IMG/VR virus record: IMGVR_UViG_2778261428_000004
Location: 1 to 39,037 of that record
From: a virus
Taxonomy: Duplodnaviria > Heunggongvirae > Uroviricota > Caudoviricetes
Strand: one strand, 5' to 3'
Length of the DNA: 39,037 nt
Part shown: in pieces, positions 28,654 to 34,101 of the stretch
Position numbering within the stretch: the first letter of the stretch is position 1
Layout of the letters: every line of letters starts with the position of its first letter
Notes under the pieces: model-generated
Databases searched by the model: none
What the model saw: only the letters and a program-made list of their open reading frames with translations
What the model was told of the DNA's origin: nothing
Translations under genes and position numbers: made by a program

Positions 28654-29370
28654 ATGGAAAATAAAAAATCACTGACGACAGAACAGCTGGAAGACGCTAA
28701 GCGGCTTAAGGCTTTGTATGAGTCAAAAAAGAAAGAATTGGGAATAACCCAATACTCAATCGCTGATGAACTGGGTATCACCCAAGGAGCGGTAGGGCAT
28801 TATCTTAATGGCAGAAATGCGCTAAACGTTGAGGTTGCATCTGGTTTTGCACGATTGTTGCAAGTCTCAATTGCTGATTTTAGCCAGTCAATTGCTGCCA
28901 AGGTTGCAGAACAGGCAGAAAGCCTTAAGAGCGATGCCAACGTAAGGTATGCAGGGGAATACAGAGCAGGAAAGAGGTATCCGGTGTTAAGCAGTATCCA
29001 GGCTGGCTCGTGGTGTGAAGCATGCGAACCATACACCATTAAAGACATAGATGTTTGGCTTGAGTCTGACGCGCATATTCAAGGTAATGCGTTCTGGCTT
29101 AAAGTGGAAGGTGATTCAATGACGGCACCGGTTGGGTTAAGCATTCCAGAGGGAACATTCGTTCTTTTCGATACCGGAAGGGAGGCGATCAACGGCAGCT
29201 TGGTCATAGCAAAACTTTCTGACTCTAACGAAGCAACATTCAAGAAGCTGATAATCGACGGCGGAAATAAATACCTCAAGGGACTTAATCCTGCATGGCC
29301 TCTCGTGCCAATCAATGGAAACTGCAAGATTATAGGCGTTGCAATTGAGACAAAACTCAGACTGGTTTGA
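28654..29370 (+). CDS. cI: CI prophage repressor (HTH N-terminal domain, S24 LexA-like autocleavage C-terminal domain)
   Basis: N-terminus parallels lambda CI (LTTEQLEDAKRLKALYESKKKELGITQ). C-terminal domain carries AG cleavage-site context and FWLKVEGDSMTAP...FKKL. Divergent from cro. Confidence 0.9.
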   Translation: MENKKSLTTEQLEDAKRLKALYESKKKELGITQYSIADELGITQGAVGHYLNGRNALNVEVASGFARLLQVSIADFSQSIAAKVAEQAESLKSDANVRYAGEYRAGKRYPVLSSIQAGSWCEACEPYTIKDIDVWLESDAHIQGNAFWLKVEGDSMTAPVGLSIPEGTFVLFDTGREAINGSLVIAKLSDSNEATFKKLIIDGGNKYLKGLNPAWPLVPINGNCKIIGVAIETKLRLV

Positions 29371-29388
29371 TCACGCAAGGGGGCGCTT

Positions 29389-29757
29389 ATGGTTGGAACC
29401 GCTATAGCAAGCTTTTTTGGGATGTTGGCAATCTCGACAATTTACGGCTTAGCGCATGCTTTTATTGCGAAATCTCTATCAGAAAAAATAAGCCAGGCTT
29501 GGGCGCATAGATCAGCTCGTTTCATGATTCTGGTGATCATAGCAATACAAGGGATATCTGCATTTATCCTCTATGGATCAAGCTTATACCTATTGTATCA
29601 AGGCGCGACATTTACGCCTTACACCAGTGATTACGGAACTCTATACGATGGTAGTGAAGACATCACTGTGGCTTGGATCGTCTTTGGTTTATCTATGGCC
29701 GTGTCTGTTGTAGCAGACATCATTAAGGTAATTCTCGTCTTAACCTTCGCTGACTAA
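29389..29757 (+). CDS. Small integral membrane protein (about 3 TM helices) co-oriented with and 18 bp downstream of cI
   Basis: AAGGGGG SD before ATG 29389; three hydrophobic segments. Occupies the lambda rexA/rexB position between cI and OL/pL; no sequence recognised. Confidence 0.6.
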   Translation: MVGTAIASFFGMLAISTIYGLAHAFIAKSLSEKISQAWAHRSARFMILVIIAIQGISAFILYGSSLYLLYQGATFTPYTSDYGTLYDGSEDITVAWIVFGLSMAVSVVADIIKVILVLTFAD

Positions 29758-29886
29758 CCTATAATCCCGGCAGCAATAGCTATCGGGATCCACTTCACAT
29801 ATCCCGCATAAAAAGCACTGAACAAGCAGACACCGAAAAAATAAATATCCTTTGTATTCATTTGCTTATCATTATTTCATCAAAAA

Positions 29887-29935
29887 TAAATACCTTGGGT
29901 ATTTACACAATAAAATACCTACAGTATTCTTTAGC
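29887..29935 (+). promoter_or_regulatory. Left operator/promoter region OL/pL
   Basis: Operators AAATACCTTGGGTATTT and AATACCTACAGTATTC share half-sites with OR; -35 TTTACA and -10 TATTCT are embedded. Confidence 0.6.
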
Positions 29936-29976
29936 CATCAGCAGGACGCTGGAAGCCAAACGGAACAGATTGGCAG

Positions 29977-30017
29977 GCTCTTTAACATTGATGGGATTGT
30001 CCCGCCGAAATGCGGGA
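29977..30017 (+). promoter_or_regulatory. nutL (boxA GCTCTTTAACA plus boxB hairpin CCCGC-CGAAAT-GCGGG)
   Basis: Same boxA/boxB sequences as nutR, about 110 nt upstream of N. Confidence 0.65.
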
Positions 30018-30124
30018 ACCAAAGAGTAGTTGGCTTTGGGGTGACGTGAAGTGCAGCTGCACGACGGCAACCGGAAGATAAGCACCCGGCGCGTCACCGC
30101 CAAAGTCAATCATCGGAGGTCAAC

Positions 30125-30430
30125 ATGACAGTAGTCATTACATATCTGGCTGACGATAACGCCAGAAATCGCCGCAGAGCACGCAGACAGGCTCAACGTG
30201 AACAGGCAATGCAAGAACAGCGACTGGCGCGAAAGATTGCGCTAAAGCTCTCTGGTTGCGTCAGAGCAGACAAAGCAGCATCACTCGGAAGCCTTCGCTG
30301 CAAGAAGGCAGAAGAAGTCGAGCGTAAACAGAACCGTATTTACTACCGCAAGCCACGCAGTGAAATGGGTGTTACTTGTGTTGGTCGCCAGAAAATGAAA
30401 TTAGGCAGCAAACCACTGTATGAGGGGTGA
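30125..30430 (+). CDS. N: Antitermination protein N-like (arginine-rich motif)
   Basis: N-terminal ARM DDNARNRRRARRQAQREQ; position between pL/nutL and the early-left genes. Confidence 0.8.
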   Translation: MTVVITYLADDNARNRRRARRQAQREQAMQEQRLARKIALKLSGCVRADKAASLGSLRCKKAEEVERKQNRIYYRKPRSEMGVTCVGRQKMKLGSKPLYEG

Positions 30431-30433
30431 TCT

Positions 30434-30685
30434 ATGGAATTTCATGAAAGTGCGATTTATGATTTCCGCGCTAACGCAAATTCAGTAAAACCACAGCCAA
30501 TTGCAGTTCTTTTTAAAACAATGGGAGCGTGGGCTGTTTTATGCTTCGCCGCTGATGACACTGACGCAAGAATGGCAATAGGCCAAGAGATGGAGATGGA
30601 CCCGACAAACGATGAATTCATAATTTATGGCGCTCCATCTAATTACTTACTTGATACCTGCAACATTTACAACAAGGCTGCCTGA
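30434..30685 (+). CDS. Hypothetical early-left protein (83 aa)
   Basis: ATG with GAGGGG SD; directly follows N. Confidence 0.5.
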   Translation: MEFHESAIYDFRANANSVKPQPIAVLFKTMGAWAVLCFAADDTDARMAIGQEMEMDPTNDEFIIYGAPSNYLLDTCNIYNKAA

Positions 30686-30724
30686 TGGTGGCCTTTATTT
30701 TTGGCACTAACAACAGAGGCTAAC

Positions 30725-31021
30725 ATGGAATTTAAAGGTACTGAAGGTAAGTGGGAAATAATGATGGATGGCGATGAGATTAAAATCATCCAGGCAGACT
30801 CACTTGAAAATGGCGCAGGCTGGCGTTCGTATATTGCAATCTGTGAGGAAGTTCAATGTATTGAAGATGCCAATCTAATAGCGGCAGCACCTGAACTTCT
30901 CGAAGCACTTCAGTTATTACTTAAGCAATCCAAAAATAGAACAACGACAACATATCCAGAATGGTATGGAGCTGTTAATAAAGGTCTTGCAGCAATCAGA
31001 AAAGCTCTTGGGGATAAGTAA
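30725..31021 (+). CDS. Hypothetical early-left protein (98 aa from ATG 30725)
   Basis: AGAGG SD before ATG 30725; stop overlaps the next start (TAATG). Confidence 0.5.
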   Translation: MEFKGTEGKWEIMMDGDEIKIIQADSLENGAGWRSYIAICEEVQCIEDANLIAAAPELLEALQLLLKQSKNRTTTTYPEWYGAVNKGLAAIRKALGDK

Positions 31022-31209
31022 TGAAAGTAAAAATAACTGCTTCTAATACCAGTTTTGTTAGTGTTGGTGATATTACAGAAGTAATAACAAACCATGATGG
31101 AACCAAAGTTATGTGGTCTGATTTTTGTAAAAGATATGAGCGAGTTAGTTGGTGTAAACTCGTATGGGGAGTCGAATACGAAGAATTACCTGAAATGCAT
31201 GACGAATAA
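31021..31209 (+). CDS. Hypothetical early-left protein (62 aa)
   Basis: Translationally coupled to the upstream gene. Confidence 0.45.
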   Translation: MKVKITASNTSFVSVGDITEVITNHDGTKVMWSDFCKRYERVSWCKLVWGVEYEELPEMHDE

Positions 31210-31214
31210 GCACT

Positions 31215-31242
31215 GTGTATTCATTCCAACGAGTGAATACAC
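31215..31242 (+). repeat. 12-bp-stem inverted repeat (GTGTATTCATTC / GAGTGAATACAC)
   Basis: Seen directly, immediately after the 62-aa ORF stop; no T-tract follows. Confidence 0.5.
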
Positions 31243-31304
31243 GGAGCAATGTCGCTCGTAACTAAACAGGAGCCGACTTGTTCTGATTATTGGAAATCTT
31301 CTTT

Positions 31305-31330
31305 GCCCTCCAGTGTGAGGGCGATTTTTT
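31305..31330 (+). terminator. Rho-independent terminator within early-left operon (tL-like)
   Basis: GCCCTC-CAGTGT-GAGGGC followed by GATTTTTTAT. Confidence 0.6.
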
Positions 31331-31350
31331 ATCTATGAGGATATGAATAG

Positions 31351-31719
31351 ATGTCAAACATCAAAAAATACATCATTGATTACGACTGGAAAGCGTCAAT
31401 AGAAATTGAAATCGACCATGACGTAATGACAGAGGAAAAACTTCACCAGATTAATAATTTCTGGTCAGACTCTGAATACCGACTCAATAAACACGGCGCT
31501 GTATTAAATGCTGTATTAATCATGCTGGCGCAACATGCTCTGCTTATAGCAATTTCGAAAGACTTAAATGCATATGGTGTTGTTTGTGAGTTCGACTGGG
31601 ATGATGGAAATGGTCAGGAAGGATGGCCTCCAATGGATGGTAGTGAAGGAATAAGAATTACCGATATCGATACATCAGGAATATTTGATTCAGATGATAT
31701 GACTATCAAAGCCGCCTGA
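31351..31719 (+). CDS. Hypothetical strongly acidic protein (122 aa)
   Basis: GAGGA SD; many Asp/Glu, especially in the C-terminal third (DWDDGNGQEGWPPMDGSEG...DSDDMT). Confidence 0.55.
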   Translation: MSNIKKYIIDYDWKASIEIEIDHDVMTEEKLHQINNFWSDSEYRLNKHGAVLNAVLIMLAQHALLIAISKDLNAYGVVCEFDWDDGNGQEGWPPMDGSEGIRITDIDTSGIFDSDDMTIKAA

Positions 31720-31794
31720 GCGCGGCTTTACCGCATACCAATAATGCTTCACGAGAGGCATTTTCGTTATGCAATCAAATATAAGGAGTTACCC

Positions 31795-31929
31795 ATGATG
31801 CACTTTCAGCTCGCGGGTAGCGGCGTCATGTCCGCTTTCTACCCGCACGAATCTGAATTATCACGCCGAGTTAAACAATTAATCAGAGCAGCAAAGAAAC
31901 AACTGGAGGCGTTATGCGCAATGAAATAG
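31795..31929 (+). CDS. cIII: CIII-like protein (putative FtsH inhibitor)
   Basis: From ATG 31795 (AAGGAG SD): MMHFQLAGSG...ESELSRRVKQLIRAAKKQ resembles the conserved amphipathic core of lambda/P22 CIII. Confidence 0.5.
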   Translation: MMHFQLAGSGVMSAFYPHESELSRRVKQLIRAAKKQLEALCAMK

Positions 31930-32066
31930 CCATTAATCACCAGATGCTTCGTGCTGCACAGAACAAAGCAGTAATAGCCAGATTTATTGGTGATTCCAAA
32001 ATGTGGCTTGAAGCAAATAAAGCGATGAAATCAGCTATCAACCTTCCGTGGTATCGCAGGAAATGA
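31914..32066 (+). CDS. kil: Kil-like protein (putative host division inhibitor)
   Basis: 50-aa ORF not in the track; contains FIGDSKMW, reminiscent of lambda Kil as recalled; position right after cIII. Confidence 0.4.
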   Translation: MRNEIAINHQMLRAAQNKAVIARFIGDSKMWLEANKAMKSAINLPWYRRK

Positions 32067-32233
32067 GTTTTACAGATAACTGGTCAGACGAAGGATTCAT
32101 TCGTCAGATGAAAGAATTAATCGGTAACGAAGGAGATATTCATGTCACTTGCAACCACAGTGAAGGAGAGCAAGTTACAGAGGCGCATGTACACGCAGCA
32201 GGCGTTAATGTATCGCCAAAAGGGAGATCGTGA
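32063..32233 (+). CDS. Hypothetical protein (56 aa from ATG 32063)
   Basis: Start overlaps the upstream stop (ATGA). Confidence 0.4.
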   Translation: MSFTDNWSDEGFIRQMKELIGNEGDIHVTCNHSEGEQVTEAHVHAAGVNVSPKGRS

Positions 32234-32320
32234 AGGTGTTCGCGTCTTTTTAAATGCGGCAAAGACCGAAGTATTAAATCAGCGTTATTTCCTTGGTCCA
32301 TGTCCATTCTGAGGTGAATT

Positions 32321-33028
32321 ATGGATTTGAATAAATTCGATGAGCCATTCAGCCCTGAAGATATTGAATGGCGAATACAGCAAAGTGGTAAAACACGCGA
32401 TGGCAAAGTGTGGGCTATGGTGCTGGCTTATGTCACGAACAGGGCAATCATGAAACGCCTGGACGATGTTTGTGGCAAAGCAGGATGGCGTAATGAATAC
32501 CGCGATATTCCCAACAACGGCGGCGTTGAATGCGGCATATCAATAAAGATTGATTCCGAATGGGTAACCAAATGGGATGCTGCTGAAAACACGCAGGTAG
32601 AAGCCGTCAAAGGTGGTCGTTCCGGTGCAATGAAGCGTGCTGCCGTTCAGTGGGGAATCGGTCGGTATCTGTATAACCTTGAGGAAGGTTTCGCACAAAC
32701 ATCTCTCGATAAAAAGCAGGGATGGCACAGGGCAAAACTGAAAGATGGGACAGGATTTTACTGGCTCCCTCCATCGCTGCCGGGATGGGCAATACCAGCA
32801 TCAGATAACAAACCATCACCAGAAAATACCAACCAGAAATCTCCATCGGTTGACTGCGAACAAATCCTGAAAGACTTCAGCGATTATGCGTCAACAGAAA
32901 CTGACAAGAAAAAACTCATCGAGCGTTATCAGCATGACTGGCAATTAATGGCTGGCAATGAGGATGCGCAGGCTAAATGCGTTCAGGTAATGAACATCAG
33001 AGTTAACGAACTAAAACAGGCGGCATAA
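32321..33028 (+). CDS. Rad52/Sak-family single-strand annealing protein
   Basis: KRAAVQWGIGRYLY motif characteristic of the Rad52/Sak family; GAGGTG SD. Confidence 0.7.
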   Translation: MDLNKFDEPFSPEDIEWRIQQSGKTRDGKVWAMVLAYVTNRAIMKRLDDVCGKAGWRNEYRDIPNNGGVECGISIKIDSEWVTKWDAAENTQVEAVKGGRSGAMKRAAVQWGIGRYLYNLEEGFAQTSLDKKQGWHRAKLKDGTGFYWLPPSLPGWAIPASDNKPSPENTNQKSPSVDCEQILKDFSDYASTETDKKKLIERYQHDWQLMAGNEDAQAKCVQVMNIRVNELKQAA

Positions 33029-33544
33029 ATGGCAAGCAGAGGCGTAAATAAGGTGATCATTATTGGTCGCCTTGGGCATGATCCAGAAATCAGATATTCA
33101 CCATCAGGAACGGCATTTGCAAACCTTACAGTTGCTACGTCAGAACAATGGCGTGATAAGCAAACTGGAGAGCAAAAGGAGCAGACGGAGTGGCACCGTG
33201 TGGTAATGAGCGGGAAACTGGCAGAAATTGCCAGCGAATATCTGCGAAAAGGCTCTGAGGTTTATCTTGAAGGCAAATTGCGGACAAGAAAATGGCAGGA
33301 TCAAAGCGGACAGGATCGGTTCACTACCGAAGTCATAGTGGGCGTTGGTGGAACCATGCAAATGCTTGGTGGCAAGCAAGGAGGCAATGAACAGTCTTCA
33401 CCTCAGCGAAATGACGGTCAGCAACAAAGACAACAACATCAGCAGCAAGGGAATCACAGCGAACCACCTATGGATTTTGACGACGATATCCCCTTTGCAC
33501 CAGTAACTCTCCCTTTCCCTCGTCACGCTATTCACGCAATTTAA
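33029..33544 (+). CDS. ssb: Single-stranded DNA-binding protein SSB with 15-aa extension beyond the canonical DDDIPF tail
   Basis: [23 protein letters not shown]...TEWHRVV...[12 protein letters not shown] closely parallels E. coli SSB; the ORF continues [15 protein letters not shown]. Confidence 0.9.
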
Positions 33545-33552
33545 GGACTTAC

Positions 33553-34101
33553 ATGAATCACTTGATGGTTGACCTTGAAACAATGGGCAACGGGCCATAC
33601 GCGCCAGTTATTTCTATTGGGGCGGTATTCTTTGACCCGAATACCGGAGAAACAGGAGAAGAGTTCTCGGTAAATATCTCGCTTGAGTCATCAATGCGAT
33701 ATCGAGCGCGTCCTGACGCTTCAACGATTTTATGGTGGATGGAACAGAGTGAAGAAGCCAGAAAATCGCTAACCAGCAACACTCAGGAGCTTTCAACGGC
33801 TCTTTCATGGTTATCTGAATTCATCATAAAGAACGCCAACCACAAACTCGTTCAGGTTTGGGGGAATGGAGCATCATTTGACTGCGTTATTCTCCGCAAC
33901 AGTTATTCGCTGACAGGGCAGCCAGTTCCGTGGCAGTGGTGGAATGACCGCGACGTAAGAACAATCGTCGAACTTGGGAAGATAATAGGATTCGACCCTA
34001 AGCGAGATATGCCATTCAAAGGAATTCGCCACAACGCGCTTGATGATGCCATTCACCAAGCCAAATACGTTTCAGCGATCTGGAAAAAGTTAGCTAAATA
34101 A
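33553..34101 (+). CDS. DEDD-type 3'-5' exonuclease (DnaQ-like fold)
   Basis: MVDLETMG (Exo I motif), later FDCVIL and HNALDDA (Exo III-like) motifs. Confidence 0.65.
   Translation: MNHLMVDLETMGNGPYAPVISIGAVFFDPNTGETGEEFSVNISLESSMRYRARPDASTILWWMEQSEEARKSLTSNTQELSTALSWLSEFIIKNANHKLVQVWGNGASFDCVILRNSYSLTGQPVPWQWWNDRDVRTIVELGKIIGFDPKRDMPFKGIRHNALDDAIHQAKYVSAIWKKLAK

Follow-up and report, generated by a model that had tools for sequence, protein, structure and literature searches.

The stretch of phage DNA analysed here, referred to as the window (IMG/VR record IMGVR_UViG_2778261428_000004, positions 1 to 39,037; 39,037 nt in all), carries three small genes, ORF1, ORF2 and ORF3 (Table 1). The phage is lambdoid and P22-like, and the genes belong to the hypervariable ral region of its pL (early-left) operon. 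The upstream anchor of this variable region is the N gene and the downstream anchor is ea10. The gene order is N - ORF1 - ORF2 - ORF3 - ea10 - cIII - kil, that of lambda being N - ral - ea10 - cIII - kil, and erf and ssb are also found downstream of the three genes. An initial annotation had placed three small ORFs (83, 98 and 62 aa) directly 3' of N and at the ral position. Both points hold, as the coordinates and selection (dN/dS) agree with the former, and, in a gene order like that of lambda, ORF1 replaces ral at the same place relative to ORF2 and the hairpin that bounds it.

Table 1. Coordinates of genes and non-coding elements from N to ea10, in positions of the window
Feature	Position	Strand	Basis or description
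N-type antiterminator gene	30125..30430	+	phrog_271, E 4.9e-38; weak Pfam N_peptide match
ORF1	30434..30685	+	83 aa; phrog_2471
Hairpin and T-run (predicted boundary sequence or weak intrinsic terminator)	30674..30705	+	terminator scan; AAGGCTGCCtgatGGTGGCCTT TATTTTT; fold -18.1 kcal/mol
ORF2	30725..31021	+	98 aa from ATG; phrog_1273
ORF3	31021..31209	+	62 aa; phrog_10407 and C-terminal part of phrog_16117
Inverted repeat hairpin	31210..31247	+	arms 31210-31226 / 31231-31247, 17 nt; 12-bp perfect core
PreS/LPR1 Hfq-dependent sRNA gene	31244..31331	+	identity to lambda, primers
PreS seed	~31279-31296	+	
tL2a terminator	stem 31303-31324; T6/U-run 31325-31330	+	terminator scan
ea10 (DUF2528)	31351..31719	+	Pfam DUF2528, E 4e-46; counterpart of lambda ea10

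ORF1-ORF3 are real protein-coding genes. The lengths of their proteins are kept across genera, and dN/dS amounts to ~0.10 for ORF1 (against Citrobacter and Klebsiella homologues) and ~0.23 for ORF3. An alternative upstream TTG exists for ORF2 at 30701, the start given by PGAP being the ATG instead. The three proteins are all acidic (pI 4.2-5.0, with 4.2 for ORF1) and have no predicted transmembrane segment. With a GC content of 42.5% (ORF1), 40.1% (ORF2) and 33.9% (ORF3) against 47.5% for the window, the genes are indeed AT-rich, as had been remarked. They had also been described as translationally coupled, and two of the junctions are tight, namely N to ORF1 (TGAtctATG, a 3-nt gap) and ORF2 to ORF3 (a TAATG overlap), but ORF1 and ORF2 are separated by a 39-nt gap that holds a conserved hairpin and T-run. 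Promoters predicted around ORF1-ORF3 were not commoner than in shuffled sequence, promoter-like sites being in fact scarcer than there.

The proteins had been called unrecognised, which holds only in part: all three belong to PHROG families, albeit of unknown function, ORF2 has kin in a Pfam family, and ORF1 is 99% identical to H0090 of VT2-Sakai. To the same extent, with one residue differing, ORF1 is identical to gp34 of phage mEp234, which is UDP0060. A profile search of 1.84 billion representative proteins found no relatives of ORF1 beyond its own enterobacterial family. SprB-repeat and InlB B-repeat proteins were rejected as homologues because their matches consist of one short motif (..PxAVL..VLCF..) summed over many repeats. 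For ORF2, 179 homologous clusters were found, and the precomputed domain PF27050 (Phage_P22_Y8K6) is present on nearly all full-length homologues among the matches listed, and on every one of the 108 listed at 85-100% query coverage, the homologues that bear it showing 56-98% identity. The protein WP_223040218.1 of E. coli VCSW5, 96% identical to ORF2, is named 'XkdD/Y8K6 family phage-associated protein' by PGAP. ORF2 is thus assigned to the PF27050 family through the domain matches of its homologues together with this PGAP name. PF27050 or XkdD/Y8K6, the domain common to the ORF2 homologues, is a family of no known function, and literature searches for PF27050, XkdD, Y8K6 and L0079 returned nothing relevant.

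Searches for function were similarly unproductive. Pfam and NCBIfam scans of the three ORFs gave nothing meaningful and no enzymatic domain, the PADLOC defence models gave no match at E<=1, and sequence searches of the PDB with single sequences and profiles gave chance matches only (E>0.1). Neither Ral (PF11058) nor SieB was matched in Pfam at E<=1 by any of the ORFs, and BLASTP of ORF1 against the Ral of CUS-3 produced no alignment at E<=100, so that none of the three proteins resembles Ral or SieB. Structure models were of poor to moderate quality (pLDDT 58 and 72), and none of the fold matches reached significance. In the AF2 model of ORF2 (pLDDT 72), a low-confidence N-terminal beta domain precedes a helical hairpin (residues 45-95) that is modelled with confidence and is hypervariable at its tip; Foldseek searches of the PDB and BFVD with this model matched nothing beyond helical hairpins of a generic kind and viral proteins without a name. 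The HMM and structure-based searches proposed in the initial annotation have revealed neither homology to Ral or SieB nor a match to a defence model or a known fold.

Comparison of loci shows that ORF1, ORF2 and ORF3 are three independent cassettes and not one coupled unit. The architectures across loci are combinatorial, the cassettes are bordered by conserved hairpins, and each gene swaps independently of the others, which does away with the coupled three-gene set of the initial annotation. At least 15 different genes, including ral and the orf184 type, occur directly 5' of ORF2. In the ORF1-anchored loci, ORF1 lies 3' of at least six different N types, and in other genera it is found behind N of three Pfam families. 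The gap between N and ORF1 is 3-8 nt in many phages, across N types, and one 74-aa cassette is occasionally inserted between the two. In VT2-Sakai, the sole gene between N and ea10 is the ORF1 homologue, the interval that is occupied by ral in lambda.

ORF1 and ral are mutually exclusive alternative cassettes of one slot. In the ORF2-anchored set of 80 loci, 15 carry ORF1 and 17 carry ral; the two genes occur together in none of 95 loci (0/15 ORF2-anchored, 0/80 ORF1-anchored), these loci not being phylogenetically independent. The arrangement in E. coli A39, ral-ORF2-ORF3-DUF2528, places the end of ral at the same distance from ORF2 as the end of ORF1. The likeness between the two genes extends to the slot itself, 3' of N and 5' of the conserved hairpin, to their early pL position and similar size (66 aa for Ral, 83 aa for ORF1), and to their common ending, ...NKAA-stop, which is coded by the 5' arm of the hairpin. 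On the other hand, their sequences share no similarity, the Cys-rich N-terminal segment of Ral is absent in ORF1, and an anti-restriction phenotype is known for Ral while none has been reported for ORF1. Simple allelism at a single recombination slot, and not functional equivalence, could account for the mutual exclusion.

ORF2 anchors the region as its conserved gene and is almost always followed by a coupled small gene, with which it forms a two-gene module that is missing from lambda. The second position of the module, coupled in translation to the stop codon of ORF2 (TAATG), can be filled by at least four different small genes, of which ORF3 is one; the others seen in this slot code for 52-53, 66-70, 41 and 78 aa. 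One ORF2 allele was seen with all three main partner types, and no co-variation between the variable region of ORF2 and the partner type was detected. Some loci contain ORF3 without ORF2, others ORF2 without a recognised partner. In the T4-like phage RB49, the ORF3 domain makes up the C-terminal half of RB49p076, joined to a different N-terminal part. Both the ORF3 domain and the N-terminal domain of ORF2 are further found in virulent phages, T4-like ones and Vequintavirinae, where they lie in hyperplastic regions. The presence of both domains in virulent phages disfavours a lysogeny-specific role.

The cassette borders are marked by two hairpins. The first, whose 5' arm codes the ...KAA-stop at the end of ORF1, is located 5' of ORF2 whatever the preceding cassette and 3' of ral in lambda; in the annotation of phage mEp234 its counterpart is a rho-independent terminator. 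The second is the 12-bp-stem inverted repeat that had been noticed after the ORFs, now delimited with 17-nt arms around a perfect core. It lies directly against the 5' end of PreS, and in the window its sequence is the same as in lambda (100% identity). Across phages the hairpin exists in three versions of unrelated sequence, each of which retains the pairing, with eight pairs changed on both sides. In lambda, the hairpin of the ral slot and the one preceding PreS are 41 nt apart; here, the ORF2-ORF3 module is placed between them.

The element 3' of ORF3 can be identified as the gene of PreS with tL2a, its predicted seed and terminator being intact. Positions 31210-31334 are 100% identical to lambda J02459 33921-34045 (the ral-ea10 intergenic region), and the cloning, probe and seed-deletion primers of a recent study (bioRxiv 10.1101/2024.10.31.621285) match the sequence of the window. 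The PreS segment is strongly structured (z = -5.1); an Rfam scan of 29300-32400, PreS included, gave no family. In lambda, PreS/LPR1 is an Hfq-dependent sRNA of the lytic cycle whose 3' end is tL2a, and it raises the translation of dnaN and represses alaS (bioRxiv 10.1101/2024.10.31.621285). Both phages have the element in the interval from the ral slot to ea10, with the same seed and tL2a; Hfq binding and lytic expression are findings made in lambda. The 'tL-like terminator' of the initial annotation, a stem followed by T6, thus corresponds to tL2a of lambda, with which PreS ends. That this downstream non-coding element is a regulatory RNA had been overlooked.

The region is also an accessory region in the sense of Silas et al., with variable genes between N and ea10/cIII, and it is recognised as one tied to counter-defence (bioRxiv 10.1101/2023.04.06.535777). 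The library of Silas et al. contains ral, orf184, UDP0060, UDP0047, UDP0057 and UDP0149 (bioRxiv 10.1101/2023.04.06.535777), and in our comparison of loci every one of these types maps to this single region, the orf184 and UDP0047 types, UDP0057 and UDP0149 being alternative cassettes of the very slots considered here. Among the library members, UDP0060 is 99% identical to ORF1, UDP0110 is a distant relative of ORF2, and UDP0057 and UDP0149 are alternatives in the ORF3 slot and not ORF3 itself. The screen, in which ECOR strains expressed the library genes, recovered Ral, Ocr and ArdA; none of UDP0060, UDP0110, UDP0057 and UDP0149 was named as conditionally lethal or host-sensitising (bioRxiv 10.1101/2023.04.06.535777). 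The demonstrated phenotype of orf184, which triggers the Abi system gop-beta-cII (bioRxiv 10.1101/2023.04.06.535777), differs in this respect from ORF1 and from the genes of the ORF2 and ORF3 slots, for which none is reported.

The three genes are therefore already-catalogued accessory cassettes of the P22-like lambdoid ral region, and since the hairpin and terminator belong to the known PreS with its tL2a, the finding is mostly ordinary and holds no surprise for a specialist of lambdoid phages. Its value is mainly cartographic, in that the cassette boundaries of the lambdoid ral region become exact: lambda appears as a phage without the ORF2-partner module, the supposed terminator becomes the PreS gene, and a hairpin conserved in structure through its three sequence versions is set at the PreS 5' end.

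As to function, our best reading, which we consider evenly balanced between right and wrong, is that these independent ral-region cassettes encode early, N-dependent host-modulating proteins, probably engaged in counter-defence. Transcription would start from pL only after loss of the repressor, and N would let RNA polymerase pass the hairpin and T-run after ORF1 as well as tL2a, so that, after infection or induction, each protein would be produced within minutes. ORF1, as a small acidic soluble protein, would most likely bind a host factor and neutralise or re-tune it, the target most probably being a component of immunity; ORF2 and ORF3, likewise small acidic early proteins, may act by protein-protein binding. 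Action as binders is suggested only by size, charge and the lack of catalytic motifs, the models being weak and giving no significant fold match. Rather unlikely, in our estimation, is the bolder proposal that ORF1 (VT2-Sakai H0090) is an unrecognised immune-evasion protein with a new fold, substituting for Ral in many lambdoid phages, including Stx2-converting ones; its having been missed in the screen could then be explained by a target system absent from, or masked in, the hosts used. Should ORF1 be host-directed, this would provide the first function for the sole N-ea10 gene in VT2-Sakai-type Stx2-converting phages of E. coli O157:H7, and an alternative to Ral with an unrelated fold.

Equally unlikely is the possibility that ORF1-ORF3 act not on immunity but on phage development or host physiology, for example on N stability, replication or the lysis-lysogeny decision. 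The neighbouring genes have such roles (cIII inhibits FtsH, Kil inhibits FtsZ and PreS activates dnaN), the close position of ORF1 behind diverse N types fits, and the absent defence phenotype in the screen of Silas et al. is compatible with it; however, the extreme variability in presence and free swapping of the genes would be unusual for core regulators, and lambda does without all three. It is distinctly unlikely that ORF1 is a functional analogue of Ral with an unrelated fold, alleviating type I restriction by stimulating modification or blocking the nuclease in ral-less phages, Stx2 phages such as VT2-Sakai among them. Its occupation of the ral slot, the strict exclusion of ral, its solitary position in VT2-Sakai and its early, small and acidic character all speak for such a role. 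The missing sequence similarity speaks against it, as does the fact that UDP0060 was not named as an anti-restriction hit where Ral, Ocr and ArdA scored, and other cassettes of the region (the orf184 type and a protein with two transmembrane segments) are so clearly un-Ral-like that the slot does not dictate function.

SieB-like superinfection exclusion or defence by genes expressed from the prophage is very unlikely. The AT-rich, moron-like composition would suit this explanation, and the terminator-like hairpin between ORF1 and ORF2 would in principle allow ORF2-ORF3 to form a unit of their own, but no PADLOC or SieB Pfam match, no transmembrane segment and no convincing promoter near ORF1-ORF3 was found, the genes are located downstream of pL and N, which are repressed in lysogens, and their domains occur in virulent phages too. 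The SieB of lambda and P22 shares the general pL-operon region with them, but it is a larger membrane protein, and ORF1-ORF3 are acidic and soluble-looking. By position, a 122-aa transmembrane protein adjoining cI (29389-29757) is a better candidate for exclusion. Finally, an obligate two-component system of ORF2 and ORF3 (for instance a toxin-antitoxin pair, or an inhibitor with its chaperone) is highly improbable despite their TAATG overlap and the near-constant presence of a coupled gene 3' of ORF2, given that the same ORF2 allele accepts three unrelated partners, that each gene is found alone in some loci, and that RB49 has the ORF3 domain fused to another N-terminal part.

The three small genes directly downstream of N are present where the initial annotation had placed them (30434-31209), and its observation has turned out to be largely correct. 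They lie on the + strand within the early-left (pL) operon of a P22-like (Lederbergvirus-type) E. coli phage or prophage, the morphogenesis half of which shows 95-96% identity to phages IME10, HZ41 and APC_JM3.2. With GC contents of 42.5% (ORF1), 40.1% (ORF2) and 33.9% (ORF3) against 47.5% in the window, they are indeed AT-rich, and both the inverted repeat and the terminator described after them exist. All three can be regarded as genuine genes, since dN/dS is ~0.10 for ORF1 (synonymous sites being saturated in the comparison with 70-72%-identical Citrobacter and Klebsiella prophage homologues) and 0.23 for ORF3, and ORF2 has 179 homologous protein clusters. The proposed translational coupling of all three holds only in part: ORF2 and ORF3 overlap in TAATG, but ORF1 and ORF2 are 39 nt apart, and this gap contains a hairpin and T-run labelled as a rho-independent terminator by the annotators of phage mEp234. 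The gap between N and ORF1 is 3 nt. The sequences had also been called unplaceable; they do lack an assigned function, but they are already known as accessory genes of unknown function and catalogued as such (ORF2 in Pfam PF27050, ORF1 as H0090 of Stx2 phage VT2-Sakai), and one of them has already been screened.

Genes and RNA elements of the early-left region in the window
Feature	Position	Strand	Assignment or detail
cI-like repressor	28654-29370		ORF list
122-aa protein, looks hydrophobic or membrane	29389-29757	+	phrog_6534, no Pfam family
N	30125-30430	+	phrog_271
ORF1 (83 aa)	30434-30685	+	phrog_2471
Hairpin and T-run between ORF1 and ORF2	30674-30695
Same hairpin, as first -KAA-stop hairpin	30674-30705
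ORF2 (98 aa)	30725-31021	+	phrog_1273
ORF3 (62 aa)	31021-31209	+	phrog_10407
Hairpin before PreS	31210-31247		arms 31210-31226 and 31231-31247, 12-bp perfect core
PreS	~31244-31331		seed ~31279-31296
Terminator tL2a, stem	31303-31324		followed by T6
ea10	31351-31719	+	DUF2528, E 4e-46
Second -KAA-stop hairpin	31703-31730
Terminator-like hairpin at cIII	31743-31762	+	AATGCTTCACGAGAGGCATT + TTCGTT
cIII	31744-31929		Pfam cIII
kil	31914-32066		Pfam Lambda_Kil
Small protein	32048-32233		phrog_2123
erf-type recombinase	32321-33028		inferred from place upstream of ssb
ssb	33029-33544		inferred from sequence

The positional part of the earlier interpretation, which put these genes in the ral/sieB slot, is well supported by a comparison of two sets of 80 IMG/VR loci, one anchored on ORF2 and the other on ORF1, in which ORF1 is an alternative to ral. 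In E. coli A39 the order is ral-ORF2-ORF3-DUF2528, with ral exactly in the place of ORF1; ral occurs in 17 of the 80 ORF2-anchored loci but in none of the 15 that carry ORF1 (Fisher p = 0.03), and in none of the 80 ORF1-anchored loci. Besides ORF1 and ral, the gene directly 5' of ORF2 can be a 107-aa gene of the orf184 type (as named by Silas et al.), a 156-aa or 207-aa gene, a two-TM gene of 140-149 aa, or one of at least 10 further small ORFs, and whichever cassette precedes, the same hairpin and T-run stands ~40 nt before the ORF2 start. Several unrelated genes of pL operons (ORF1, Ral, the orf184 type and Ea10) end in -KAA-stop, and this ending lies in the 5' arm of a hairpin, rich in GC and followed by a T-run, twice in the window and at ~34060-34090 in lambda (J02459); this conserved hairpin looks like a recombination boundary for cassette exchange. 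The partner directly 3' of ORF2 lies within -3 to +6 nt in every case and always ends in CGAATAA; it is of the ORF3 type in 28 loci, a 52-53-aa gene in 33, a 66-70-aa gene in 15, a 41-aa gene in four and a 78-aa gene in one. Architectures are combinatorial. Among 5426 complete E. coli genomes, at least 80% of the three-gene block is found in only 13, some part of it in 2249. Lambda differs from the window in having no ORF2-partner module, which here sits between the ral-slot hairpin and the hairpin preceding PreS. The lambda junction (J02459 33900-34100 against window 30700-31215) reads aacaga/ATAA/acactgcactg and keeps the ribosome-binding-site region of ORF2 and the stop codon of the partner, which would fit a clean deletion of the module or, the other way round, its insertion.

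ORF1 is 99% identical to VT2-Sakai H0090 (82/83 residues), the sole gene between N and ea10 in that phage, and to gp34 of mEp234; it is also found in HK633, JEP4, Gally, APC_JM3.2 and many Stx phages, and in 56 phage records overall. In the ORF1-anchored loci it follows N genes whose specificities fall into at least six types (lambda-, P22-, phi21- and 933W-like, and others), sometimes with one 74-aa cassette in between, and it again follows an N-type gene in Citrobacter, Klebsiella and Enterobacter prophages. One Citrobacter-type prophage (L090, 3299-3595) has ORF1 between two distinct N-like genes, PF25694 N_peptide on its 5' side and PF26859 Phage_N_antitermin on its 3' side. By sequence, ORF1 can be considered a true orphan, because a word-indexed search of 5.8 billion proteins returned 19 clusters, Enterobacteriaceae throughout, and a profile search run exhaustively over 1.84 billion representatives gave nothing beyond its own family except repeat-protein artefacts. 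The latter, SprB-repeat proteins (P0162, P0164, P0165), were rejected as homologues: a short motif match summed over at least 12 repeats gave a spuriously significant whole-sequence E of 1.5e-14 for P0162, which calls for caution in profile searches with orphan families.

ORF2 belongs to the Pfam family 'Phage_P22_Y8K6', named 'XkdD/Y8K6 family phage-associated protein' by PGAP. The family alignment is modular, with an N-terminal EFKGTxGxW beta domain of two types, an invariant EDAxLIAAAPDLLEALQ helix, a hypervariable, indel-rich segment and a conserved AAISKALGEE end; in the AF2 model a helical hairpin is predicted with confidence and carries the hypervariable segment at its tip. The proteins are internally mosaic, the tip being flanked by nearly invariant helices, a pattern that either a diversifying binding surface or intragenic recombination would be expected to produce. 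The N-terminal domain recurs in ~145-kb Vequintavirinae phages such as Klebsiella phage KB57 (L097, 1204-1461). ORF3 has ~21 clusters of close relatives, and its domain, found in phage 9NA as well, is the C-terminal half of the 119-aa RB49p076 of phage RB49 (L096, 1312-1671), encoded where small hypothetical genes cluster beside gene 38 in T4-like Krischvirus phages. Such small domains are therefore common to temperate and virulent phages.

Scans of Pfam, NCBIfam and PADLOC gave no match for any of the three, to Ral, SieB or any other entry; no PDB relatives were found by sequence or profile, and no fold match was significant, the ORF1 model being poor (pLDDT 58). The proteins are small and acidic (pI 4.2, 4.7 and 5.0 for ORF1 to ORF3), without TM segments. 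The most likely reading, to which we give an even chance, is that each is an accessory protein in its own right, made early in an N-dependent way, and that they act by binding host factors, probably in counter-defence; ORF1 would then be the allelic alternative to Ral. A serious if somewhat unlikely rival is that they serve in host physiology or in the development of the phage, as the neighbours cIII, Kil and PreS do. That ORF1 is itself a Ral-like anti-restriction protein is unlikely, and this view is weakened by the accessory-gene screen of Silas et al. (10.1101/2023.04.06.535777), the most pertinent experimental work for these genes. The 200-gene library of that screen lacks ORF3 itself; it includes the two genes that most often replace it (UDP0057 and UDP0149), along with UDP0060, which is one residue (Y9C) apart from ORF1, a distant relative of ORF2 (UDP0110), the TM cassette type (UDP0047), Ral (orf87) and orf184. 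Ocr, Ral, ArdA and orf7, 24, 48, 63, 92, 98, 116, 126, 143, 145, 148 and 184 are named with phenotypes (10.1101/2023.04.06.535777); the five UDP members are not among these named genes, which leaves room for weak effects. Prophage-expressed exclusion fits the data poorly and is improbable. An obligate ORF2-ORF3 pair is a poor fit too, and highly improbable: the same ORF2 allele combines with each of the three main partners, which gives no indication that they co-evolve.

The non-coding element adjoining ORF3 is a published sRNA. Window 31210-31334 matches the region between ral and ea10 in lambda (33921-34045) with 100% identity. A 2024 preprint reports that this lambda region encodes LPR1, renamed PreS, an Hfq-dependent sRNA of ~88 nt that is processed to ~68 nt and expressed in the lytic cycle; terminator tL2a makes up its GC-rich hairpin and poly-U 3' end, and the sRNA activates the translation of dnaN and represses alaS (10.1101/2024.10.31.621285). 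The cloning primer (GAGCAATGTCGCTCGTAACT), the 3' primer, the northern probe and the seed-deletion primers of that preprint all match the window and so define PreS and its seed here. The terminator described earlier as tL-like is therefore, given this identity and these matches, specifically tL2a, and the 12-bp inverted repeat is a hairpin ending exactly at the PreS start. PreS is present in 74 of the 80 ORF1-anchored loci. The preceding hairpin occurs between identical flanks in three unrelated versions, CTGTGTATTCATTC..GAGTGAATACACGG, CCTATAGCAGA..TCTGCTATGTG and TAATGACCA..TGGTCATTG (window, L021, L025, L062, L078, L084). This variation is a new detail; the words 'hairpin', 'stem-loop', 'RNase E' and 'RNase III' do not occur in the preprint text (10.1101/2024.10.31.621285). 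Since all three versions fold, with eight pairs altered on both sides, it suggests selection for structure, e.g., as a processing or stability determinant, as far as three variants can indicate.

The 122-aa protein gene, directly 3' of the cI-like repressor and 5' of pL/N, is in the position of rexAB/sieB-type prophage-expressed exclusion genes and travels with the same cI allele in many loci. A terminator-like hairpin lies just 5' of the annotated cIII start and overlaps it; it may form part of the regulatory structures that the cIII mRNA is known to have in lambda. Where a locus has no ea10, the sequence equivalent to this hairpin directly follows the PreS terminator.
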